From an uncultured Nitrospiraceae bacterium (GTDB taxonomy: Bacteria; Nitrospirota; Thermodesulfovibrionia; Thermodesulfovibrionales; Dissulfurispiraceae), in the NCBI GenBank assembly GCA_963727805.1, contig CAVSHF010000003.1, positions 1,280,001 to 1,344,000 on the forward strand: 64,000 bases of DNA, in the 5' to 3' direction. The stretch's first letter is position 1; every line of letters begins with the position of its first letter. A program made the translations under genes and the position numbers. Shown piece by piece: positions 26,347-40,763 of the stretch. The notes beneath the pieces are model-generated. The model saw nothing but the letters and a program-made list of their open reading frames with translations. It searched no databases and was not told where the DNA came from.

Positions 26347-27334
26347 CCTGTTCCCCTTCCTTGCCGATCTTGCACCGGCGCTTAAGATGACTGATAGGAA
26401 TTTGCTTTTTCAGTATGAAAGAAGAATAACACGAGAAAAGGAAATTATCAATATGAAGTGCAGGAAATTTATACGGAATATTTTTCGAACACTTCAATTC
26501 GGAGCAATTTTTGATGCATGCACAGAAAGTCCCATTTCGATCATAGTGATGTCCCGCCTCGCATCCTGCTTTTGTTGAGATAGATTGCCGCATCGCGTGC
26601 CTTTGACAACTTACGTAGCACCACCATAAAAAAACTTGCTGCCGGGGTCTTATATATTTGACGATCAGTCTGTTGAGATTGCTGATGTCTTTCTTTATCT
26701 TATTCGTCTTGGCCTCCTGGAGATACCTCATCCATCCACTTAGGACAATACTCTTGAGAATCTCATCGAGGCAATAGAGCGCCATATAAAAATAATTTTT
26801 TCTGTCCGCTATATGGTTCATCATGAAACCCTCAGCGAGGTAGGAAGGATGGACAAGGTACTATTCCGATCTCTCTAGGTACGTGCGACTTCGGATCTGC
26901 TTTACCCGTCAGCGGTGCGTTAGACCTCCATTTATAGATAAGAAGTGAGCATGCTGATATTATTATGTCTTCCCGCTTGAGCCCTTCCGGAACAATTTAC
27001 TTATCAGTCGTTCTGGTTCTATCTTCTGCAGTCTTTTGTCATCAATGATAGACCTAGTCTGTGAACGTTAAGTAATATTCAATTAAGTTATCCATTTTCT
27101 TTTTATCTTATGTGTGTATTCTGTCAACACTCATGTTATATTAAATAAATTACATAAGGCTTTCAGAGAACTCAGCTGACCCATTCTGGACTGCGCTTTT
27201 CGCGTATCTTCAAAGCTCTTTTTTGATAATCTCTGAATTTACAGCATATTATACTATGAACCACCGGTTCTTTTTATCTGGTACATTTATTGGTTAAATT
27301 AAGTGATTTTGAGCCAATTTCAAGGAGGAACTTC

Positions 27335-28600
27335 ATGAAGCGCGTTTGGATATCACTTGTAATTGCACTGAGTGCGACGATTTTTATGATGTGGCAGGGC
27401 GGTGCCTTCGCCGAGAAACCGAAGGACATGGCACAGGCTGAGACAAAGGTTGAGCAAAAATCTGATGCAACGCCTAATGCTGCAGTATCGCCGACCATCT
27501 TGATCGACAAGACTTCGCTCAGTAATGGCGGCACTATCACCGTTACCGGTACCGCTCCCGCGGGGAAACCGGTCTATATCGAAGTATGGTCTGACGACAA
27601 TGTGCGCGTCTCACGTTTCGATGCAGATGTGGACAAGGAGACCGGCAAGAGACCATATATCCTGTACATGACCGAACAAATGCCAGCCTACTATAAGATA
27701 TTTATGCCGACAGACAAGAAGGAGGCACTGGACGGGATCAAAAAAGAGGGGAAGAACTGGAGCGTCTCAAAGGCGGTTAAAGACCTCAGTGCGGACATCG
27801 CGTACTCGATACCCGCAAAGATCAAGATAGAACGTTACCAGGCGACGCTGATGGGCAGCATCATCGGCTCACGCGGCGACCTACTTCCCCAGATGGATGA
27901 AAAAGAAAGCAGGAAGCGTTCAATGCAGCTCATCAAGGCTCGCTTCCGATCTCCGGACAAAGTGCTCAGCGCCGATGTCGAGGTCAATCCCGACGGTACC
28001 TACAAGGCGACGATCATGATCAGGGAAGGTCTGGCACCGGGTAACTATTCAATCGCAGCAGTCGTCGATAAAGGTGTGAAGAGCCAGCCGGTATCCTTTG
28101 AAAATAAGATCAGCTTTCCGAATATCTATCTGAGTAATGCTGGAACGAGCCTCAATCTTTTCTGGCCTTTCTTGCTCAGCCTCGCCATATCGATCTTCGG
28201 CGTTCTCATGGGTGCTGGAGGGGGCTTCATTCTGAACCCGCTCCTCGTATCTATTTGGCCGCTTCCGCATACTGTAGTTGCCGGTACTGTCATGCCGACG
28301 GTCCTCTTTTCTCAAGGCAGCGGCATCTACAATTATTCAAAGATAAAATTCATCAACTGGAAACTTGGCATCACGATCGGCCTCGGCATGCTCCTGGGCG
28401 GATTCATCGGCCCGAAGCTTACAGAGTTGATCACTCTCGATCAGTATAAATTCGTCTTTGGCTGGATCCTAGTCATTCTTGCGGGCCTAATGCTCTGGCA
28501 GACAACACCCAGCTATCTCAACAAGAACAAGAAGGAACAGGCCATACTGAAGGAATTCAGGAGACGGGCGGAAGAATCGATAAAAGCGAAAGGCAAATAA
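27335..28600 (+). CDS. TauE/SafE (TSUP) transporter N-terminal half, fused to a large exported domain
   Basis: Signal peptide (GAFA|EK), about 250 hydrophilic residues, then GVLMGAGGGFILNPLL and four or so TM helices. RBS AGGAGG. Confidence 0.85.
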   Translation: MKRVWISLVIALSATIFMMWQGGAFAEKPKDMAQAETKVEQKSDATPNAAVSPTILIDKTSLSNGGTITVTGTAPAGKPVYIEVWSDDNVRVSRFDADVDKETGKRPYILYMTEQMPAYYKIFMPTDKKEALDGIKKEGKNWSVSKAVKDLSADIAYSIPAKIKIERYQATLMGSIIGSRGDLLPQMDEKESRKRSMQLIKARFRSPDKVLSADVEVNPDGTYKATIMIREGLAPGNYSIAAVVDKGVKSQPVSFENKISFPNIYLSNAGTSLNLFWPFLLSLAISIFGVLMGAGGGFILNPLLVSIWPLPHTVVAGTVMPTVLFSQGSGIYNYSKIKFINWKLGITIGLGMLLGGFIGPKLTELITLDQYKFVFGWILVILAGLMLWQTTPSYLNKNKKEQAILKEFRRRAEESIKAKGK

Positions 28601-28611
28601 GGAGGATAATC

Positions 28612-29001
28612 ATGATAGTCGAATTCTGGGGACACGAATTTAAGGTTAATATCATTTTCGGAGTAATCGGAGGTTTCCTGATCGCCATTGTTTCATCTAT
28701 GTTCGGGTTCGGTGGCGGCCCCTTTATGACACCTCTCATGGCGGTAGGCCTTGGACTGCCGATGTATCTCGTCGTCGGAAGTTCGCTGCTCGCAATCTTC
28801 TTCAATACTTTGATGGGCACGATGCGTCATTACCAGTTCGGCAACTTCGACCTCGCCTTTTTTCTTATCATGTTTCCAGCCGCGATCCTCGGAGGATTCA
28901 TCGCGCCGCAGATTGCGAAACGAGTCAGCCCCATTGTGGTAAAGCGGGTTGCGGTCGCCGGACTGCTCATCCTTGCGTTGAACCTGCTTGGGCTTTACTA
29001 G
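28612..29001 (+). CDS. TauE/SafE (TSUP) transporter C-terminal half
   Basis: SSMFGFGGGPFMTP, VGSSLL, four TM helices. Confidence 0.85.
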   Translation: MIVEFWGHEFKVNIIFGVIGGFLIAIVSSMFGFGGGPFMTPLMAVGLGLPMYLVVGSSLLAIFFNTLMGTMRHYQFGNFDLAFFLIMFPAAILGGFIAPQIAKRVSPIVVKRVAVAGLLILALNLLGLY

Positions 29002-29022
29002 AGACCGATGTTGAAGGGGCGA

Positions 29023-29049
29023 GGAGCAGGGTCGAATAGTCCCTGCTCC
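29023..29049. other. GC-rich stem-loop between the transporter and oxidoreductase genes
   Basis: GGAGCAGGG-N9-CCCTGCTCC perfect 9-bp stem with no clear U-tract. Confidence 0.55.
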
Positions 29050-29293
29050 TTCAAGAGCAGCATGAGACAGAAGTGCCGGATCAAAAGCGCGATGAATCAG
29101 TCAGTCGTATTATGAGTTCACTCGTTAGGAATGAACATGAACCACAGGGGTAAGACTGTCGTGGATACTCACACGCCCGACTGAATACAAAGACATCGCG
29201 CTTTAGCTCACGTTTTTCTTCGTGACGACAAATTTATGTTAAGCTGAATTTAGAAAGGGTTTTACGAAAGCAAATAACTACAGAGGGACAGAT

Positions 29294-31387
29294 ATGACAG
29301 AACAGACTTCTGTTTTTAGCATGTGCGGCATGTGCGCTGTGAGATGCCCCATCCGCGTCGAAGTTGAAGGTGGTGCCGTGACTTGGATCGAGGGCAATCC
29401 GCATGTGCCGGGCATCGAGGGGGCACTCTGCGCCAAAGGTTCTGCTGGACTTGCCTTTGAATACGACGCGGAAAGACCTCAGCATCCGATGATCAGAAGA
29501 GGTGCAAGGGGGGCCGGCAAGTGGGCACAAGCCACGTGGGACGAGGCCCTCGATTATATCGCCGACAAACTCAAAGAGGTGACAGACAAGCACGGAGACA
29601 GAGCCATTGCACTCGCGGACCGTTGCGGCCCCTTCACCGACCTGACTAAGAGTTTCCTCAAGTCTCTCGGCTCGCCCAACTATTTCGACCACGACGACTC
29701 TTGCGCGATGAACGTAAACATGGCCTGCCAATCTCTTTTCGGGTACGGCCGCGGTGAGTTGGGCTATGACTTTTCGAACACGAAGTATATCGTACTCTTC
29801 GGTCGTAATATCTTCGAATCCCTCCAAGTCAAAGAGGTGAACACGGTCTTGGACGGCATGGAGAAAGGCGCGAAGATGGTTTACATCGATATCAGAGCCA
29901 CAGTAACCGCATCAAAGGCCGATAAGTTCCTAACGATTCGTCCCGGAAGCGACTATGCTATGTTGCTTGCCCTTGTTAACACAGTTTTGAAAGAACGGCT
30001 TTATGATGCGGCATATGTCAATCGCTATGTGTCGGGACTTGCAGAGCTTGAAGCCTTCGTTGCGGCCTACACCCCCGAGTGGGCCGAAAAGGAGACAGGC
30101 ATTCCTGCCCACGAGATATACACCATAGCGCACGACGCGGCAGCTGCCAAGCCGAACGTCATATTCCACGGCGGCTGGATGCTGTCCAGATACATCGATT
30201 CCTTCTATGCCAGCAGGATGCTTTATATCCTTAACGCCCTTCTGGGTAGTGTCGAGTCTAGAGGAGGCATCATCATTGCCAAGGGGCCGAAGGATACTGG
30301 CAGAAAGGGGCTAAAGTCTTTGGGCGCTCATATTCCGGATGTATCAGACACGATTGTGGATACCGACATGAAAAAGAAGTCACTCGGTACAGGCCACATG
30401 GTCAATCTCTATAAGGCGATCAGGACCGGAGAACCCTACCCTGTGAAAGCCTTCATCGCGTACCGATTCGATCCGATAGCGGCATTCCCGGATCCCGATG
30501 AACAACGGCAGGTGCTGGATAATCTCGACCTGCTAGTAGCGATAGATGTGAATTATAGCGATACCGCGTGGCATGCTGACGTGATTCTGCCCGAGGCAAC
30601 ATATCTTGAACGTTCGAACATCATCGCGACACAAAAAGGGCCGAAACCGGCATTTGTCATGAGAAGGCAAGCAATGGCACCACGCTACGACAGCAAACCC
30701 GCCTGGGAGATCTTCACGCTTCTTGCCGAGCGCATGGGCGCTGGCCGGTATTTTCCTTACAAGAACATAGATGACATCTGGAACTATCAGCTCGAGGGCA
30801 CTGGTGTGGAGATCGAAGACTTCGGCGCAAAGGGTCTTGTAAGCCTTGCCAAGGACCCGATCATAATGCCGCGTGATTCCATCAAGTTCACAACTGCATC
30901 AGGAAAAATCGAGTTGGTCTCATCGAAGCTCGAAAAGGCAGTATTCTCATCATTCGCTCCATATGTGACCCCAAAGAAACCCGAAGTGGGATTCTTCCGT
31001 CTTGCCTTCGGCCGCACTGCTGTGCATGCACATGCGCAGTCACAAAACAATCCATACCTCAATGAGCTTGTTCCCAAAAACACTCTGTGGATAAACGATG
31101 GCGAGGCAGAGAAGCTTGGCATTAAAAACGGTGATGACGTCGAAGTAAGCACCGAAGGTTATAGCGGGAAGATCAGGGCCTATGTTACCGCATACATTCA
31201 TCCAGAAGCGGTATTCATGCTCCATGGCTTTGGAAACGAAGTGCCGCTCAAGACGAGGTCCTTCAAAAAGGGACTACGAGATACCAAGTTCCAGAAGGGA
31301 CTTATTGAAACGGTTGATCCTGTTGGCGGTGGGGTCGCGTATCTCGAATGCATGGTTAGCGTGAAAAAGGCATCTGGGGGGCAATAA
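29294..31387 (+). CDS. Mo/W-bisPGD oxidoreductase catalytic subunit, PsrA/PhsA-like, no Tat signal
   Basis: CGMCAVRC...LCAKG [4Fe-4S] motif at residue 11, putative Cys ligand HDDSC, IRPGSDYA, ADVILPEATYLER, VFMLHGFG. Confidence 0.9.
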   Translation: MTEQTSVFSMCGMCAVRCPIRVEVEGGAVTWIEGNPHVPGIEGALCAKGSAGLAFEYDAERPQHPMIRRGARGAGKWAQATWDEALDYIADKLKEVTDKHGDRAIALADRCGPFTDLTKSFLKSLGSPNYFDHDDSCAMNVNMACQSLFGYGRGELGYDFSNTKYIVLFGRNIFESLQVKEVNTVLDGMEKGAKMVYIDIRATVTASKADKFLTIRPGSDYAMLLALVNTVLKERLYDAAYVNRYVSGLAELEAFVAAYTPEWAEKETGIPAHEIYTIAHDAAAAKPNVIFHGGWMLSRYIDSFYASRMLYILNALLGSVESRGGIIIAKGPKDTGRKGLKSLGAHIPDVSDTIVDTDMKKKSLGTGHMVNLYKAIRTGEPYPVKAFIAYRFDPIAAFPDPDEQRQVLDNLDLLVAIDVNYSDTAWHADVILPEATYLERSNIIATQKGPKPAFVMRRQAMAPRYDSKPAWEIFTLLAERMGAGRYFPYKNIDDIWNYQLEGTGVEIEDFGAKGLVSLAKDPIIMPRDSIKFTTASGKIELVSSKLEKAVFSSFAPYVTPKKPEVGFFRLAFGRTAVHAHAQSQNNPYLNELVPKNTLWINDGEAEKLGIKNGDDVEVSTEGYSGKIRAYVTAYIHPEAVFMLHGFGNEVPLKTRSFKKGLRDTKFQKGLIETVDPVGGGVAYLECMVSVKKASGGQ

Positions 31388-31894
31388 ATGAGCATTTATT
31401 ACATATATCAGGACCAGAATCGATGTATTGGCTGTTACGCCTGTGAGGTGCACTGCAAGACCAAGAATAATCTTCCGGTCGGACCGCGTTTTTGTAGGAT
31501 TATACCTGTGGGGCCAAAACCGGTCAGGGGAATACCGAAACTCAATTTCGTCTTCATGCCCTGCTTTCACTGTGAGAAGCCGTGGTGCGCATCTGCGTGC
31601 CCCACGGGTGCTATGCAGAAGCGGGCAAGGGACGGCATAGTCTTCGTCGATGCATCGCTGTGCGTCGGCTGCAAATCATGCATCACTGCATGTCCGTGGG
31701 GTGTGCCGCAATGGGACTGTACAACGGGCAAGGTGATCAAATGCGATTACTGCAAGGACAGGGTCGACAGAGGTTTGAAGCCTGCATGCGTGACCAAATG
31801 TACTGCTCACGCCCTGCGGTGGGTGTCTCCTGACGAGGCGTCTGAATTAAAGAGGGAAAGGTTTGCCAAGGATATCACTGAAAATCAACAGTAG
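31388..31894 (+). CDS. Four-cluster Fe-S electron-transfer subunit (PsrB/DmsB-like)
   Basis: CIGCYACEVHC, CFHCEKPWCASACP, CVGCKSCITACP, CDYC...PACVTKC. Confidence 0.92.
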   Translation: MSIYYIYQDQNRCIGCYACEVHCKTKNNLPVGPRFCRIIPVGPKPVRGIPKLNFVFMPCFHCEKPWCASACPTGAMQKRARDGIVFVDASLCVGCKSCITACPWGVPQWDCTTGKVIKCDYCKDRVDRGLKPACVTKCTAHALRWVSPDEASELKRERFAKDITENQQ

Positions 31895-32648
31895 GGAAGT
31901 GCAGGCGGCCGAGGGCATGACAGTCCTCGAAGCTGCGCGCCAGGAGGGGGTCGACATTCCTACCCTCTGCTATCTCAAGGCACTAGGTCCCTACGGCGTA
32001 TGCCGACTTTGCATAGTCGAGGCAGAGGGGCCAGGGCTTATTCCCACAATACTTCCTTCCTGTAACCTGACGATTTCAGAAGGTCTCATCGTCATAACGA
32101 ATTCTCCTGTCATTCAGTCAATGAGAAGGACCATCCTAGAACTACTCCTAGCAAGCACGCCTTTAACAGAAGCCCTGAGAGTGATTGCGGATAAGTTCGG
32201 ACTAGAGACTTCACGATTCAAGTCAGCAAAGAGCGATCCATGTTTTTTGTGTGGTCTCTGCGTAAGGGTCTGCTGCGACAGGATTGGCGCTTCGGCCCTC
32301 TCATTTACAAGTGTCGGGAATGAACAAGTGGTTGCAGAACGAATACGGATGAACGCGGAATTGTGCATAGGCTGCGGCACCTGTGCGAACATATGCCCTA
32401 TGCAGGCTATGCAACTCGAAGATGCGGAAGCCGAGAGAAGGATTATACTATATGGCGAGGTTGTAAAAAGATTTGATCTGGTCAAATGCGACGGCTGTGG
32501 TACACCGTATACTACACAGAAATTCATAGACTCCATTATCTCACGACTCGCTGATGAACAGAGATGCGGCCTTAAGAATCTATGTCCTGAATGCGCCCGT
32601 CAATACTATGCCGAAGCTCTCACGGGACAATTCCCCTCTGAAGGATAG
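31863..32648 (+). CDS. [2Fe-2S]/[4Fe-4S] protein resembling the N-terminus of NuoG/[FeFe]-hydrogenase
   Basis: IPTLC...GVCRLC...PSC, CFLCGLCVRVC, CIGCGTCANICP, CDGC...CPEC. Confidence 0.85.
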   Translation: MPRISLKINSREVQAAEGMTVLEAARQEGVDIPTLCYLKALGPYGVCRLCIVEAEGPGLIPTILPSCNLTISEGLIVITNSPVIQSMRRTILELLLASTPLTEALRVIADKFGLETSRFKSAKSDPCFLCGLCVRVCCDRIGASALSFTSVGNEQVVAERIRMNAELCIGCGTCANICPMQAMQLEDAEAERRIILYGEVVKRFDLVKCDGCGTPYTTQKFIDSIISRLADEQRCGLKNLCPECARQYYAEALTGQFPSEG

Positions 32649-32653
32649 TATAG

Positions 32654-34636
32654 ATGTCGCGTGAGAGGTCAATCAAGTACTGGAACAACAAACCAATGGG
32701 AAATGCACCGCCACTCAGGTACGGTGACCGAAAAGTCGCTGCTGTAATCGGATGGGGCGGCATCCAGGTGTTCGACACGCACGTTGACCTTATCAAGGTT
32801 TGTTATGAATATGCCCAAGCTGTGCAGAACAATTCGTGCGGCCAGTGCATCCCATGCAGGACTGGGATGAGGGTGCTCGCAGGCCTTTTTGCAAAGATCA
32901 GTGCAGGTCGCGGCGAGGGAAAAGACCTTGAGTATATAGAAGAGCTTTCAATGACGATTTCAAGGTCTTCGATGTGTGAGATAGGACAGAGCTCGCCAAG
33001 AGTCTTTCTCTACCTGCTTGAAAACTTCAGGGATACCTTCGTCGCCGCCCTGAAAGACAAACCTGGAGTTAAGAGTGACGGAAGCAGGCGGTATTCATTC
33101 CATTCAATGCTAACAGCACCGTGCATGCAGGCTTGTCCAATCCACCTCGACATCCCAAAATACATTGAGGATATTAAGACAGGAAGATTTCGGGAATCCC
33201 TCGAGATTATAAAGATTAGGCTTCCCCTCCCTGGCATTGTCGGAAGGGTTTGCGTGCGGCCCTGCGAATTCAATTGCCGGAGGGAGTTGGTGGATGAGCC
33301 CATCCAGATAAGACATCTTAAGAGGTTCGTCGCGGATTATGCGCGCGATCATGCTCAAGACTCATCGGATAAACATGTCCCTAAGACGACAGCTGCCGTT
33401 AATTTCAAACAACACGCCGCACCACAAAAGGTTGCCGTCATCGGGGCAGGACCGTCAGGTCTCACGTGCGCTTCCTTCCTAGCAAAGGCAGGTTATGACG
33501 TCACTATCTTCGAAATGCTCCCTGAGGCCGGAGGTATGGCAGCAGTAGGGATTCCGGATTATCGCCTCCCCCGCTACATTGTTCGCGGTGAAGTTGAGGA
33601 AATAGAAAAACTAGGCGTCAAAATCGTTTATGGTAAAGCCCTGGGCCCTAGTTTCACCCTGGATGACCTTGAAAAGGACGGGTATAAAGCAACATTCATC
33701 GGCATGGGCTGCCATTGTCATAAGAGCCTCGGCATAGAAGGTGAAGACAAAGGGTATTATGGGTATGTGCCAGGCGTCTACTTTCTACGGAACATAAACC
33801 TCGGACTTTATGATGAGATTCCCAAAGGAAAGAAGATGGTGGTAGTCGGCGGCGGCAATGTTGCCATAGACTGCGTGCGGACCGCCTTCAGGGTGGGTTT
33901 TGATGAGTCCCATATCGTATACCGCAGGTCACGGAAAGAGATGCCGGCAGATCAGGTTGAGATCGATGATGCAGAGTCTGAGGGAGTCAGCTTTCATTTC
34001 CTGACCGCGCCCAACCGTATCATAGGGGAGAACGACAAAGTGAAAGGACTCGAATGCCTGAGGATGGAACTCGGAGAACCCGACTCATCCGGTCGGAGAA
34101 GGCCAGTCGTAGTCCCCGGCTCGGAGTTCGTCATCGAGGCAGATGTGATTGTAGCCGCCATCGGCCAGGAAGGGGATTTCAACTGCATGTGCAATCTGCC
34201 GGGTGTGGAGGTGTCGAAAAAAGGGGCGATCCTCGTCGATGAAAATCTGATGACATCACGAAAAGGCGTCTTCGCGGGAGGAGACTGCGTCACCGGTCCT
34301 GACGTCCTCATAAAAGCATGCGCGCATGGAAGACGAATCGGCATGGCTATAGACAAGTATCTGATCGATGGCAGCTTGGCCCCCTTGGGAGAGGTAACGG
34401 ATGAGAAGTTCCTGGAACAACTGAAGTTATATGATTCATCCGAAGTCATCGCTCTTCCCGCAGGCACGGGACGAATACCAGTCCGTCACGAACCATCCGC
34501 TGAGAGGAAGAAAGACTTTCGTGAAGTCGATAAAGGATTCACCCCCGAAGAGGCCGTTGCAGAGGCATCGAGATGTCTCAGATGCTATCGTGTGGTAATG
34601 TACGCCTGTGCCCGCTATGGAACTGATGAGATATAG
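32654..34636 (+). CDS. GltD/SfrB-like NAD(P)H:FAD Fe-S oxidoreductase with N-terminal NuoF-type [4Fe-4S] domain
   Basis: SCGQCIPCR...SMCEIG, APCMQACP, GRVCVRPCEFNC, GAGPSG, GGGNVAIDC...YRRSRKEMPA, FAGGD, RCLRC. Confidence 0.9.
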   Translation: MSRERSIKYWNNKPMGNAPPLRYGDRKVAAVIGWGGIQVFDTHVDLIKVCYEYAQAVQNNSCGQCIPCRTGMRVLAGLFAKISAGRGEGKDLEYIEELSMTISRSSMCEIGQSSPRVFLYLLENFRDTFVAALKDKPGVKSDGSRRYSFHSMLTAPCMQACPIHLDIPKYIEDIKTGRFRESLEIIKIRLPLPGIVGRVCVRPCEFNCRRELVDEPIQIRHLKRFVADYARDHAQDSSDKHVPKTTAAVNFKQHAAPQKVAVIGAGPSGLTCASFLAKAGYDVTIFEMLPEAGGMAAVGIPDYRLPRYIVRGEVEEIEKLGVKIVYGKALGPSFTLDDLEKDGYKATFIGMGCHCHKSLGIEGEDKGYYGYVPGVYFLRNINLGLYDEIPKGKKMVVVGGGNVAIDCVRTAFRVGFDESHIVYRRSRKEMPADQVEIDDAESEGVSFHFLTAPNRIIGENDKVKGLECLRMELGEPDSSGRRRPVVVPGSEFVIEADVIVAAIGQEGDFNCMCNLPGVEVSKKGAILVDENLMTSRKGVFAGGDCVTGPDVLIKACAHGRRIGMAIDKYLIDGSLAPLGEVTDEKFLEQLKLYDSSEVIALPAGTGRIPVRHEPSAERKKDFREVDKGFTPEEAVAEASRCLRCYRVVMYACARYGTDEI

Positions 34637-35726: not shown

Positions 35727-36536
35727 TCAGTCGCCAAACGGCAATATCGGCATCACGTAAACATTAATTTCTTTAACGCCAGGGATATTTTTGGCAGACT
35801 CTTTTATATTCTCAATGAGTATGTCTTCCTGATGTGCTGTAGCGCTCGTTTTAATCGATACAATACCTTCTTTGGCATATACTACCGCATCCGGAGCGTA
35901 CTCTAATATTGCAACTTTTACTCTGGCCGCGACAAGCATCTCATGAAGAACCTCTTGAGACCCTGGAGAAGCTTTGAATTGATTCAGGCGAATCGTTTGG
36001 CAGATAATATCAACAGCATCATCAACGGATATCTTCTTGATATGAATTATCAAGTCATACAGACTTGAATCGTTAGTGTCAATCCCATAAACATGGTGAC
36101 TCCATTTTCTTCTTTCTTCGTCATCATTTTTTAAAAGACGGGCTGCCTCTTTTTCTGACATTTTTTCACGTTCCATCTCCCACTTTATTCGATCTGCCAT
36201 ATCAGCAATGATCCTCACCTTCAATACATGGGAGACGCCTTTGAGCAGAAAATGTCCAGCGAGTCCATGGTAGACGACATTATCTTTACTCAGATGCTCA
36301 AGAAAAGCTACCTGATAGTACGCAATAAATTTCTCTTTCCCATATGTAAATTCATCTAAAATTGAAGGCGCATCATGCAGTGCCCGTTCGAGTTTAACTG
36401 CAGGTATATTGAATTCTTGTGACGCCTCAATAATTGCCTCGCGAGCAATACACTCATATCCAACCTTCTTAGCAACCTTTTCCGCAATTTCCTTCCCTTT
36501 GGTATATGAACCTCTTGAAATAGTAATTATAGACAT
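35727..36536 (-). CDS. Cytidylate-kinase-like family protein with C-terminal BON-like domain
   Basis: ITISRGSYTKGKEIAE, VVYHGLAGHF, LKVRIIA, YDLII, C-terminal IPGVKEI. Confidence 0.8.
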   Translation of the reverse strand: MSIITISRGSYTKGKEIAEKVAKKVGYECIAREAIIEASQEFNIPAVKLERALHDAPSILDEFTYGKEKFIAYYQVAFLEHLSKDNVVYHGLAGHFLLKGVSHVLKVRIIADMADRIKWEMEREKMSEKEAARLLKNDDEERRKWSHHVYGIDTNDSSLYDLIIHIKKISVDDAVDIICQTIRLNQFKASPGSQEVLHEMLVAARVKVAILEYAPDAVVYAKEGIVSIKTSATAHQEDILIENIKESAKNIPGVKEINVYVMPILPFGD

Positions 36537-36698
36537 TACGATCCTCCATCAGAAAACTAATTCATTATAGATGCCATAAGGCATCTTTGCATCAGGCATA
36601 AAGCTTATTTTGCCGAAAAAATATATTAAAGTAAAGTATATTAACCAGATTAGAGTTAACGATATTATAAAATAAGGTTGTGACATAAGCTGCTGGTT

Positions 36699-38606
36699 TC
36701 ATTCAGGCTTTCCAGGCAACGTCCCTTGCGCGTCAGCGTCAGCGTCAGCTTCGCCTTCAGATACTGTCTTGCCTGGACATAATTTAACCGGCTCTGTCCT
36801 GCAGTAAGGATATTTCACCGTCTCGCATTCCCAGAAGACAAGGTTAGGACATTTCTCCCGGCAGTGGGTGTAGTCGATTCTATTGAAAAGTCTTGTTATC
36901 GAATCACCTTTCGAAAGGAACCAGTGATCCTGCTCGAAAATACGCTTGAGCCCAGACCGTTCCAGCACATCAGCAACTGGAGTCTTCACATTGGCCAGAT
37001 ATACCTCTACGCCCTTCTTTTTAAGTTCCAGCACCAGTTCGCGCATCTCATCCACACCGGTAGAGTCGATTTTGTTGACCATCTCCAGGTCAAGTAGAAT
37101 GTATTTGAGATTGTCCTTAAATATCTCTGCTTTTTCGAGTACAGACTTGCGGAAGGATTCGGCATTAGCAAAATATATTGAGAAATCCGGTAGGAGATAG
37201 ATGATCTGGGGACAGACTGGCAGTTTTTTTGCTTCGGCGTTAACAAAAATCTCGGATCTGGGATCGCGGGTTAGCATGATCATGCGTGGAGTCATGGATT
37301 CCCAAAGAAAGAGCAAGAGCGAGAGGGCTATACCGATGAAGATTGCGTAATCAGGCTTGGTAATGACTGCAAAGAGGAAAGTCGTGAGGGCCACAATGCC
37401 GTCATGCTTGTTTGTCCTGAGAAGCTTCGCAAACTGGCTTTGTCTCACCAGACCGACTACTGCCGAGATGACTATGGCGGCCAATGTTGCCTTCGGAAGG
37501 TGATGGAAAGCCGACGTAAAAAATACGAGAGTGGCAATTACGATGCATCCCGAAAAGACATTCGACAGCGCGGTCCTACCACCGGCCTGGAGGTTCACGG
37601 CGCTGCTGGAAAAGGAGCCGCTTACCGGATAAGCATGAAAAAATGACCCCACCAGGTTAGCCGCGCCCTGGCCGATCAACTCCTGGTCAATATCGACAGA
37701 TTGTTTTGTTTTTTCAGAGATCGCTTTTGTAATTGCCATGGCTTCCATGAAGCCTACGATGGCGATAATAAGGCCAGGGCCGATGAGGCGGAAAATAGCC
37801 TCAAGGTTCGCTGCCGCCGAGACAACACCGTGCAGATCGATGTTCTCCTGTGGAACCATGGGCCCCATATACTGCCAGAAAGGGATGATGATCGAGGGCA
37901 GACCGGCAGGCATATCCCCTATGGTCCTCACCCCATAGCGGTCGATAGAAAAAAAATAGCTGATAAGCGTGGTAACAACAATAGCTATCATTGTAACCGG
38001 CAATTTACCACTTACCTTGCGGCCACCAAAAATGATCGTGAGAGAAAGTAAACCGATACCAAATGTGAGGAGATTAACATGAGAAACATTTTTTACGATA
38101 TCGACAAATATGGGGAAGATGAACTCGCTGTCTCTCACCTGTATGCCGAACAGGTGCTTAACCTGCGTCGTAGCGATAATGATTGCAGCGGCGTTGGTAA
38201 ACCCCGTTATGACGGGATGCGACACGAACCTCATGATAAAGCCGAGCTTTAAGATGCCCATCAAAAGCTGGAAAGTGCCGACTATGGCCGCCAAGTTAAT
38301 GGCAATGATTATGAACTCAGGCGTTCCTGGCTTCGCAAAGGGAAGGACCGATGCGAAGGTAAGGAGGCTGACAATGGCGACCGGCCCCGTAGCGAGTTGG
38401 CTAGACCGACCCCACAGAGCCCCCACAATAGGGGGAATGCTAGCTCCATAGAGCCCATATATAGGAGGCAGGCCGGCAATCATGGCATTGGACATTGACT
38501 GCGGAATGAGGACCGCCGCAACTGTGATACTGGCAATCAAGTCCTGAGGAAGGTCTTCTTTTCGGTAGTCCTTCAGCCAGCCTATAAACGGAAGAAATCT
38601 TTGCAT
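36699..38606 (-). CDS. sulP: SulP/SLC26 anion transporter with STAS domain
   Basis: LIPQSMS, GLPPIYGLY, ATGPVAI, GFTNAAA, QELIGQG, STAS (IYFANAE, IDSTG). Confidence 0.92.
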   Translation of the reverse strand: MQRFLPFIGWLKDYRKEDLPQDLIASITVAAVLIPQSMSNAMIAGLPPIYGLYGASIPPIVGALWGRSSQLATGPVAIVSLLTFASVLPFAKPGTPEFIIIAINLAAIVGTFQLLMGILKLGFIMRFVSHPVITGFTNAAAIIIATTQVKHLFGIQVRDSEFIFPIFVDIVKNVSHVNLLTFGIGLLSLTIIFGGRKVSGKLPVTMIAIVVTTLISYFFSIDRYGVRTIGDMPAGLPSIIIPFWQYMGPMVPQENIDLHGVVSAAANLEAIFRLIGPGLIIAIVGFMEAMAITKAISEKTKQSVDIDQELIGQGAANLVGSFFHAYPVSGSFSSSAVNLQAGGRTALSNVFSGCIVIATLVFFTSAFHHLPKATLAAIVISAVVGLVRQSQFAKLLRTNKHDGIVALTTFLFAVITKPDYAIFIGIALSLLLFLWESMTPRMIMLTRDPRSEIFVNAEAKKLPVCPQIIYLLPDFSIYFANAESFRKSVLEKAEIFKDNLKYILLDLEMVNKIDSTGVDEMRELVLELKKKGVEVYLANVKTPVADVLERSGLKRIFEQDHWFLSKGDSITRLFNRIDYTHCREKCPNLVFWECETVKYPYCRTEPVKLCPGKTVSEGEADADADAQGTLPGKPE

Positions 38607-39485: not shown

Positions 39486-39833
39486 TACTATACCGTCGGG
39501 CTAAGAAATACTATTATGCCAATCGTTGAAGTCGGTACAGATAGTACAACATGCCATGTGTAATAGCAGAAATTAGCATCCATGATCATCAATTTCAAAT
39601 ATTTGAGAAACCAACTATGTCAAACATAGAGCCAAGCTCAGATGCAGAATTCTAGAAGAAATTTGTCTATTGCTTAGCTCGCCAGATAACAGACTTCCAG
39701 AAAGAACAGGATCCAACACTTGTGACCAATAAATCCAAGTTTTTTGCACAAATGAGTATGCTTGATATATTTATTTTATTGCTACTTGAAGAGGAAGAAG
39801 TGGGATTTTAACGTCATAAGTCTCGCATCTCAG

Positions 39834-40471
39834 GTCGAGTAGGCCGGTGGAATCGCACCACCAGCCCCTCACAGATTCCGTACGTGAACCTCTCGATTCA
39901 TACGGCTCGTGTCAATCATCAAGTTGAGTCTTTGCAGTCTCAACCATACACATTGAGCGATAGTTCCTCCTGGTCACCCAGTTGACTGGTACTCTTTGTG
40001 GATTGACCCATCCCCTTCCCTCCACGGCTTATTATCACCGCTTCATCGGTACTATTGGACGGTCCGACCCCTTCACCTGCATCGATACTTTCCCCCTTCG
40101 TTTGCACTTATAGGGTTTTCTCTTAGCATCAGATGAAGAGTTCCCGCGTTCCACACAGGAGCCTAGATCAGCTTCATGCCGCCTCTATGCCGGACGCCGT
40201 TCAGGCAGTAAACAGGTATCTCCTGAACTAATCCTGATGCAAAGTAAGAACATCAGTTTTGACGTCGTCCTTTTCCTTTCGACACCTCATCAGCGGTTCG
40301 CTTACGCTCATCTCTCTGATCCATCCCTGACACGATCTAGTCGTGCCTTTTCCTTTAACGCTCACCACCGGAGCCTTTCGACTACAGCAGCTTAAGGTGG
40401 GTTGAAGCCTGCTCCTGCAAGCCGGCTTCGAGGGGCCAACCCTCATCTTCCTGTGCAGCCTCGTGGCGCAC
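39834..40471 (-). ncRNA. Group II intron ribozyme lacking an intron-encoded protein (638 nt)
   Basis: 5' GTGCG, domain V GAGCCGTATGAATCGAGAGGTTCACGTACGGAATC with AGC triad, domain VI ending CCTACTCGAC, closed ~97-nt domain IV, and EBS1/IBS1 match of 5/6. Confidence 0.88.
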
Positions 40472-40763
40472 TTATTTCTGGAAGTCGACACGACATAATT
40501 GCATGAAATATTTAACATACAAGCGGAAGTCTAAATACTTTTGCCGCCGAACAAGGGATGGTAATATCAAACTGGTGTAACAGCGACGTGCCACTCAATC
40601 ATGATGCAGCAATCACGCTGCAAAGCCTTCGGTGGTTATCGTCTCGTGGTGAATCATCCACCTCTTTTGTTTAGTATTACTGCATAAAAAAACCGGTACC
40701 AAAGTGGATCGGCTTTGCACTAATGGTATAATTACGTCTAACACTAATTGAGAGGTATTCGAA

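Follow-up and report, generated by a model that had tools for sequence, protein, structure and literature searches.

How does a molybdenum (Mo) enzyme of the polysulfide/thiosulfate reductase type obtain its electrons when its operon encodes neither an export signal for the enzyme nor a membrane anchor? This question is raised by a six-gene cluster at positions 27335-34636 of a 64,000-nt stretch of DNA (hereafter the window, i.e., positions 1,280,001 to 1,344,000 of contig CAVSHF010000003.1, or G000:C3:1280001-1344000) from the genome of an uncultured Nitrospiraceae bacterium (GCA_963727805.1, denoted G000; rated 100% complete), whose nearest relatives by catalytic subunit are metagenome-assembled genomes (MAGs) titled Dissulfurispiraceae, Nitrospiraceae or Nitrospirota. 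Our answer, to which we give about an even chance, is that the operon encodes a cytoplasmic NADPH-dependent thiosulfate reductase built around a leaderless, PhsA-related Mo enzyme. An earlier interpretation made from the letters of the window (the sequence-only reading) had proposed a fixed, soluble four-subunit complex with a dedicated TauE transporter, decoupled from the quinone pool; the gene anatomy that it described was borne out by the data below, while the fixed composition and the decoupling, as worded, were not.

A leaderless catalytic subunit related to PhsA

Gene 3 (29294-31387; + strand, as are all six genes) encodes a catalytic subunit of the Mo/W-bis(pyranopterin guanine dinucleotide) (bisPGD) type with the Pfam Molybdopterin, Fe4S4 and binding domains. 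Its CxxCxxxC motif for the FS0 cluster (Cys11-18) begins at residue 11, i.e., only 10 residues precede it, and its HDDSC motif (residues 133-137) provides the predicted metal ligand, Cys137, which aligned to Cys173 of Thermus PsrA (2vpw_A), the residue that we take to bind Mo in that enzyme. The best PDB match was also Thermus PsrA (2vpw_A, E 1.4e-116), and the best NCBIfam model was PhsA (536.3 bits), far above ArrA (145), TtrA (65) and YnfE/F (146-148) as well as the Fdh and Nap models. A search for the twin-arginine translocation (Tat) leader pattern RRxFL gave no true match in 91 full-length copies from related loci, the one match to the pattern lying upstream of the start codon. Accordingly, the affinity to PsrA/PhsA as opposed to formate or nitrate enzymes, the missing leader and the cytoplasmic location that had been proposed for the enzyme all held up.

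Phylogenetic analysis was consistent with these assignments. A quick tree was computed from 141 rows, namely 16 copies from the loci, three paralogs, and 122 full-length proteins out of 150 representatives; a careful tree used 34 of these rows, and both were midpoint-rooted only. The Tat-less proteins formed a clade in both trees (support 100/100 in the careful tree), sister (99/98) to a clade that contained the three proteins passing the PhsA cut-off among the 64 scanned; one of the clusters to which these three belong carries the name PhsA, and NapA was placed elsewhere in the quick tree. The ligand motif PNxFxH..C is common to the gene 3 clade and the PhsA proteins, unlike the Thermus type.

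A predicted electron path from NADPH to molybdenum

Gene 4 (31388-31894) abuts gene 3 (TAAATG) and encodes a PsrB/WorS/HycB-type subunit with four [4Fe-4S] clusters (Fer4_11) and a C-terminal helix-like tail, matching both PsrB (2vpw_B, E 4e-24) and WorS (9mqx_E, E 7.8e-16). Gene 5 (31863-32648) shares 32 nt with gene 4, starts with TTG, and combines a [2Fe-2S] and two [4Fe-4S] clusters (Fer2_4 and Fer4) with a CxxC..CxxC zinc-finger motif and a C-terminal helix. It had been described as NuoG-N-like, which was right in that it is an Fe-S protein; however, it is more than a plain NuoG fragment, and its best solved relative is WorA (9mqx_A, residues 15-248, E 1.6e-33), the zinc finger and helix having been overlooked. 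All 16 motif cysteines, including the four of the zinc finger, were invariant in 19 aligned copies. In the WorABCSL structure, as described in the excerpts of PMC12318220, the zinc finger props the C-terminal helix of WorA, which docks the PsrB-like WorS, and WorS units stack via C-terminal helices of their own. By homology, gene 5 is predicted to dock gene 4 in the same manner, its C-terminal helix occupying the gene 4 groove as that of WorA does on WorS.

Gene 6 (32654-34636) follows after a gap of 5 nt and encodes a NuoF-type [4Fe-4S] domain (PF10589), overlooked when the gene was called GltD-like, fused to a GltD/Nfn-type FAD/NADPH domain (PF14691 and PF07992). The call was correct with respect to an NADPH-type flavoprotein: the protein carries GxGxxG at 264, GxGxxA at 399 and YRRSRKEMPA at 423, and GxGxxA is an NADP(H)-type motif (excerpt of PMC7483475). 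Its best PDB matches were 9bov_A, 8oh5_C and 9n5u_A; the PF01512 FMN domain is lacking from the protein, and a NuoE gene from the cluster. Electrons would thus travel from NADPH to FAD, two GltD-type [4Fe-4S] clusters and the NuoF-type [4Fe-4S] cluster in gene 6, and onward through the [2Fe-2S] and two [4Fe-4S] clusters of gene 5 and the four [4Fe-4S] clusters of gene 4 to FS0 and Mo-bisPGD in gene 3. The tight junctions between these four genes agree with the proposed spacing, and no NrfD or cytochrome b gene was found within the cluster, also as proposed (the five NrfD matches of the genome are all elsewhere). Hydropathy peaks of genes 3-6 ranged from 1.24 to 1.77, two of them marginal, and a clear membrane helix was absent.

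Homologs of gene 6 with about 50% identity occurred in 101 of 401 genomes, and most of the 30 that were fetched precede an 870-880-aa NuoG/Fdh-alpha-like gene, an arrangement that we take to be the SfrB-SfrA layout; gene 6 itself presumably resembles SfrB. That is, the long partner is replaced here by the adaptor and a PhsAB-like head. In addition, stand-alone homologs of gene 6 (57% identity) lie between housekeeping genes in L164-L166, with no adaptor, and the Psr head of these genomes is Nuo-linked. In L168, L169 and others of L134-L162 (from the phylum of G014, a Desulfobulbaceae MAG), a gene-6-like flavoprotein and a ~880-aa NuoG/Fdh-like gene replace nuoEFG in the nuo operon, which likely represents an NADPH-fed complex I.

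One catalytic head, several electron modules

To the extent that the sequence-only reading described a fixed six-gene or four-subunit system, the related loci speak otherwise. We classified 92 distinct gene 3 copies, which are the best-scoring matches and not a random sample, by the genes that follow them; 19 copies with too little downstream DNA were left out and four labels were corrected by hand (type A for the locus studied here, type E for L033 and L034, and, for L110, Nuo genes that follow an insertion). The 73 classifiable copies comprised 33 with Nuo genes, 14 of type A (adaptor plus flavoprotein of the gene 6 type, this operon included), 10 of type E (GltD-adaptor fusion), five of type B (NuoE/F plus adaptor), two of type D (HydN-like protein plus pyridine-nucleotide reductase), one with Nuo, A and D modules together, one with the adaptor only, and seven with nothing seen. 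Thus, the flavoprotein pair does recur behind the Mo subunits, as had been anticipated, namely at 13 other loci and one mixed locus, and 10 of the 13 share the split TauE pair. On a tree of 70 copies, the module changed state at least 18 times, eight of these changes being between membrane and soluble forms, counts that have no shuffled baseline; the sister group of the gene 3 studied here is Nuo-linked (support 99). Hence, the stable unit is the TauE pair plus the catalytic (A) and PsrB-like (B) subunits, and the electron module is swappable: one catalytic head is seen exchanging its module repeatedly.

The zinc-finger domain is common to types A, B and E behind the same head (blastp E 1e-21 to 1e-41). 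The idea that it might represent a universal adaptor was abandoned; none of the nine Psr-linked NuoI examined carried the zinc-finger extension and, therefore, the adaptor is common only to the soluble modules. The C-terminal tail of gene 4 was present in 33/33 Nuo, 9/9 type E, 5/5 type B, 2/2 type D and 11/15 type A copies, and in one of the five copies with no module. Two type A loci encode a catalytic subunit (L116:6628-8736 and L117:6739-8844) that shares only 50-53% identity and has the ligand motif HHAxC, whereas all of its neighbours are 63-89% identical. The catalytic gene looks to have been exchanged while the operon around it stayed intact, and a second adaptor gene is present in L116.

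Headless complex I and the quinone pool

A nuoA-N set lacking EFG is also present in this genome (C3:384470-394659), at a distance from any head. The NuoB of this set shares 81% identity with a Psr-linked counterpart. The NuoD of the set clusters with Psr-linked NuoD (support 100), but this may reflect mere kinship, given that unlinked headless Nuo of the phylum were not represented in the tree. Three operons (L017, L163 and L174) have only NuoD and NuoI behind the head, pointing to a membrane arm that is encoded at another site and joins them on assembly. An orphan nuoD and nuoI lie in G000 itself (C3:438421-446179) beside a NuoE/F/G-type module, and the corresponding pair lies beside a Psr head in L017, L163 and L174, which suggests that NuoD/NuoI are exchangeable docking subunits for one headless complex I. 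Since a headless complex I without a linked head is encoded here, and Nuo is the commonest partner of the head and that of the sister group, decoupling from the quinone pool is not supported as originally stated; it is plausible where the encoded complex is concerned but, for the cell as a whole, unproven.

Distribution and association with dissimilatory sulfur metabolism

The host is a sulfate-reducing bacterium. Its dsrA and aprA exceed their cut-offs, and visual inspection of translations pointed to open reading frames (ORFs) resembling dsrB, dsrC, dsrMKJOP, sat, qmoABC and nfnAB. A Pfam DsrD search gave no match in this genome nor in any control; a 79-aa ORF after dsrB is DsrD-like by position only. 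At a threshold of E 1e-150, the gene 3 family was found in 35 of 301 genomes sampled in the same phylum, where all 12 sampled genomes of one genus carry it; the corresponding count for the phylum of G014 was 105 of 401. Among 39 carrier genomes, 35 have dsrA above the cut-off (with two partial matches and two with none), and those passing include genomes titled Acidobacteriota, Myxococcota and Pseudomonadota. In the own-phylum sample, where genomes were matched by eye, dsrA accompanied the enzyme in 33 of 35 carriers vs. 159 of 301 genomes overall, and only two of the 142 genomes with no dsrA match had the enzyme. It is important to note that these co-occurrences are raw counts and that kin genomes are not independent; with this in mind, they agree with the link to Dsr-based sulfur metabolism that had been suggested. 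The single-contig genome G095 gave no dsrA match although 11 of 12 members of its genus have dsrA, possibly due to a search miss.

The split TauE pair and the upstream region

Genes 1 (27335-28600) and 2 (28612-29001), 11 nt apart, encode the N- and C-halves of a TauE/SafE protein; together they cover the full PF01925 domain (positions 2-114 and 125-237; 69.5 and 74.5 bits vs. a cut-off of 32.6). Gene 1 had been read simply as a TauE half, which the PF01925 match supports; however, its TauE portion follows a signal-peptide-like start and a ~230-aa extracytoplasmic domain that had been overlooked and is conserved across 33 aligned copies. A PDB profile search for the fold of this domain returned one chance match (E 0.75), and the Atlas only scores of 0.76. 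An unsplit TauE homolog near a related enzyme (locus L027) has the same layout as gene 1 (hhalign probability 98.3). The split pair lies beside 36 of the 41 gene 3 copies with at least 58% identity and enough flank, and would bring thiosulfate in or send sulfite out.

A degenerate sigma-54-type -24/-12 candidate (27279..27293, +), with G instead of the consensus C at -12, precedes gene 1; by eye, its distance to the start equals that of the near-consensus sites of L173, L001, L002 and L007. A sigma-54 pattern search found a site in eight of 29 related loci and none in the window. Several relatives have a PhnD-like binding protein, a kinase and a sigma-54 regulator upstream, none of which is present in the window (the closest regulator of the genome is 46% identical); PhnD-like domains are of the type used by thiosulfate and tetrathionate sensors, according to the excerpts of PMC5408782. 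The 292-nt spacer between genes 2 and 3 (29002-29293, +) contains a GC-rich hairpin at ~29021-29052 with no U-run (fold z-score -2.38); the spacer has no second copy in the genome, and the other loci gave a 40-nt match in one only.

Other features of the window and expression

No Rfam match was found inside the cluster. A scan for promoters and terminators gave 14 and six sites vs. 9.5 and 7.2 expected. One wetland metatranscriptome had 0.07 of words in common; 29 of 47 contigs were <90% alike, i.e., mostly other organisms, and DNA carry-over is possible. A ~190-200-nt stretch upstream of the operon (26640-26860) has two copies, 70-73% similar, elsewhere in the genome. A SulP/STAS anion permease and a cytidylate-kinase-like gene (35727-38606, -) are encoded 1 kb past the end of the cluster in convergent orientation to it, and this pair was not seen in related loci L001-L038. 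A ~640-nt group II intron (39833-40474, -; Rfam RF00029 at 39834-39910), has a longest stop-free stretch of 81 aa, i.e., no long ORF. The genome contains nine further copies of 99-100% identity besides several that have diverged, and most of the copies follow a TTCC..AG-like sequence. Reverse-transcriptase-like ORFs are located at C3:7005-8504 and C5:45200-46459 and, therefore, the intron may be mobilised in trans.

Weighing the explanations

Under the thiosulfate reductase hypothesis, DsrAB or Apr/Sat would drain the sulfite formed, pulling a reaction that is uphill at standard conditions. Several observations weigh against this hypothesis. The standard potentials (thiosulfate, -402 mV; NADPH, -320 mV) are unfavourable as long as sulfite is not kept low; the potential computed from these values is -313 mV at 1 mM each, i.e., near balance, and -224 to -254 mV, i.e., favourable, at micromolar sulfite, a level at which Dsr or Apr could hold it. 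The catalytic subunit scores under the PhsA equivalog cut-off (536.3 vs. 694 bits), and our literature search found a measured activity for no member of the Tat-less clade. Only 33 of the 159 dsrA-positive genomes of the phylum have the enzyme, so it is accessory. Four genomes have a gene 6 homolog (55-59% identity) alone, with no adjoining adaptor or Mo gene, and in L116 and L117 the type A module accompanies a catalytic subunit that has diverged, so that the module does not fix the substrate. Arsenic sensors also use PhnD-like binders. Further, the Dissulfuribacter and Desulfolithobacter proteins discussed below are connected to the enzyme through their description, gene order and lengths as opposed to a comparison of sequences, and in Desulfolithobacter, according to the excerpts of PMC9751629, the PhsA copies were judged minor under thiosulfate disproportionation, one copy being higher under sulfate reduction.

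Alternatively, the same complex might run in reverse, oxidising sulfite (to sulfate by itself or, together with sulfide, to thiosulfate) and delivering low-potential electrons to NADP+ or, in relatives, to NAD+/ferredoxin or to quinone via a proton-pumping headless complex I. The NADPH flavoprotein, the NuoEF-type module and the headless Nuo can all be read as acceptors for a low-potential donor, an oxidising head would fit forward complex-I chemistry, TauE/SafE is the sulfite-exporter family, and two carriers titled Pseudomonadota may be sulfur oxidisers; the choice of "oxidation or reduction" is also left open in the excerpts of PMC5165239. Yet the sister group is PhsA, and the PhsAB-like pair of Dissulfuribacter was higher on thiosulfate than on sulfite/H2 (PMC13490349), and we consider the reverse direction unlikely. 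Equally unlikely, in our view, is an NADPH-dependent polysulfide or sulfane-sulfur reductase that serves as an electron sink or for redox balance. Thermus PsrA is the best solved relative, homologs are labelled "thiosulfate reductase/polysulfide reductase chain A" in the sources, and transfer from NADPH to polysulfide is downhill by the potentials of the two couples; nonetheless, ligand motif and tree place the enzyme nearer to PhsA-type proteins than to the Thermus-type group, and the oxyanion-type transporter and sensor indicate an oxyanion. That the oxyanion is a different one (tetrathionate, arsenate or selenate), reduced in the cytoplasm for detoxification, appears very unlikely given the scores for ArrA, TtrA and YnfE/F relative to PhsA, the strong dsrA association, and the absence of ars genes adjoining the cluster within the window. 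This is so even though the PhnD-like binder, kinase and sigma-54 regulator of relatives are similar to arsenic regulators, one relative has an ExtI-like porin upstream, and the substrates of this family are, according to the excerpts of PMC12998232, not readable from sequence.

The remaining alternatives concern the electron partner. The A+B head might work mainly on the separately encoded headless complex I, and hence be quinone-linked, with the NADPH module as an optional second input or an independent unit. The Nuo genes behind the head in 33 of 73 copies and in the sister group of this enzyme, the NuoB and NuoD of the headless Nuo of this genome, the operons with NuoD and NuoI only, and the tail that gene 4 retains in common with all Nuo-linked copies are all consistent with such a role. 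We nevertheless regard it as quite unlikely: the NuoD grouping may be kinship, the operon has no NuoD or NuoI of its own, and genes 4-6 overlap or lie 5 nt apart as in a co-assembled complex. A broader possibility, which we consider doubtful but worth stating, is that A+B units stack into a WorS-type Fe-S nanowire via the C-terminal helix of B, which plugs into either the NADPH module or headless complex I; the enzyme would then be reversible and account for the step of sulfur disproportionation at which thiosulfate is cleaved or sulfite oxidised in the cytoplasm, and direction and energy yield would depend on the plug.

Comparison with known systems

The thiosulfate reductase hypothesis can be best appreciated by comparison with PhsABC/PsrABC (NCBIfam PRK15488; PDB 2vpw). 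The operon enzyme resembles these systems in its Mo-bisPGD, FS0 and ligand Cys, its PsrB-like partner and its sister-clade position; however, it is not a member, having no Tat leader, no PsrC/PhsC anchor and a score under the PhsA cut-off, and its predicted donor is NADPH, not quinol. Further counterparts are the cytoplasmic PhsAB-like enzymes of Dissulfuribacter thermophilus (DITHS69_2028/2027) and Desulfolithobacter dissulfuricans (GF1_30490/30500 and GF1_10120/10130), and the PsrAB with headless Nuo of Thermodesulfovibrio N1 (THER_0567-0582), which has a Nuo module where the operon has an NADPH module. The A and B subunits of these three taxa are Tat-less or anchor-less and of ~700 and 150-168 aa, like those of the operon; a Nuo module or none is described for them, and a WorA-type adaptor and NADPH flavoprotein for none. 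For instance, GF1_30490-30570 matches locus L030 in order and lengths (A 701, B 168, NuoA 124, NuoB 173, NuoC 195 and NuoD 408).

Tat-less, anchor-less PhsAB-like enzymes of sulfur reducers and their Nuo-linked form are, therefore, already in print (PMC13490349, PMC9751629, PMC5165239), and the novelty of the operon is smaller than the sequence-only reading implied. According to the excerpts of PMC13490349, the Tat-less pair of Dissulfuribacter was up 2.45 and 3.51 log2-fold during thiosulfate disproportionation, among the most induced proteins; this recent proteomic work views the cytoplasmic, anchor-less enzyme as the probable first step, and in the same excerpts its electron partner is unnamed, the donor left hypothetical and biochemical work called for. 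PMC9751629 describes PhsAB of Desulfolithobacter without subunit C, followed by Nuo genes, with NuoD 3.2-fold higher under thiosulfate disproportionation, and remarks on the lack of a functional analysis of PhsAB; PMC5165239 links PsrAB of Thermodesulfovibrio to a headless Nuo cluster. The operon offers a candidate electron donor for such enzymes.

The electron module has counterparts of its own. Relative to WorABCSL of Acetomicrobium mobile (PDB 9MQX; excerpts of PMC12318220), gene 5 is WorA-like end to end, including the zinc-finger Cys and terminal helix, and gene 4 is WorS-like with its C-terminal tail, whereas the catalytic subunit is Mo-bisPGD and not of the WOR fold; in place of the bifurcating WorBC (NuoF/NuoE) pair there is a flavoprotein of the GltD type and, therefore, bifurcation is not expected. 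Similarly, the BfuA-type features of the Bfu family (A1, A2 and A4 clusters, WorA zinc finger and helix) are present in gene 5, while the BfuB FMN/NADH domain and BfuC (NuoE-like) are absent from the cluster, both being present in type B relatives. The GltD-type FAD/NADPH domain is common to SfrAB of Geobacter and the Stn/Nfn-Bfu modules (PDB 8oh5, 9bov, 9n5u); relative to SfrAB, the short adaptor and PsrAB head replace the long SfrA-like partner, a likeness drawn from the gene layout and not from the Geobacter sequence. In the excerpts of PMC3543383 and PMC9888536, SfrB is only mentioned, as an NADPH-oxidising partner.

The MOLY cluster (MolyABC), proposed for sulfur disproportionation, is likewise an anchor-less Mo A+B system, but is predicted to be exported and has a TorD chaperone (excerpts of PMC9676032 and PMC12998232). 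The operon has neither a Tat leader nor TorD/DmsD, and we rejected its identification as MOLY; the Tat- and TorD-type locus of this genome is on C4 and belongs to another clade. That locus (L179:2557-6524) encodes a Tat-bearing Mo enzyme, an Fe-S subunit and a TorD-type chaperone, i.e., a MOLY-like anatomy, together with a small cytochrome gene, and adjoins ArsC- and Acr3-like genes. Among the strains of PMC12998232, the full MOLY set occurred only in Desulfobacterota.

Our literature search, which was thin in subscription papers, found no account in which a PhsAB-like head is combined with either a GltD-type NADPH module or an adaptor of the WorA type. The WorA zinc-finger/helix adaptor is hereby extended to Mo-bisPGD enzymes. 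Further, the operon is fully soluble, so that expressing its four enzyme genes and assaying the product with NADPH should be feasible, which sets it apart from the membrane-bound variants; given how common the family is in two Dsr-bearing phyla, a single assay would serve to annotate many genomes. What this operon adds to the known PhsAB-like systems is, in short, a WorA-type adaptor, a swappable electron module, and a soluble form open to assay.

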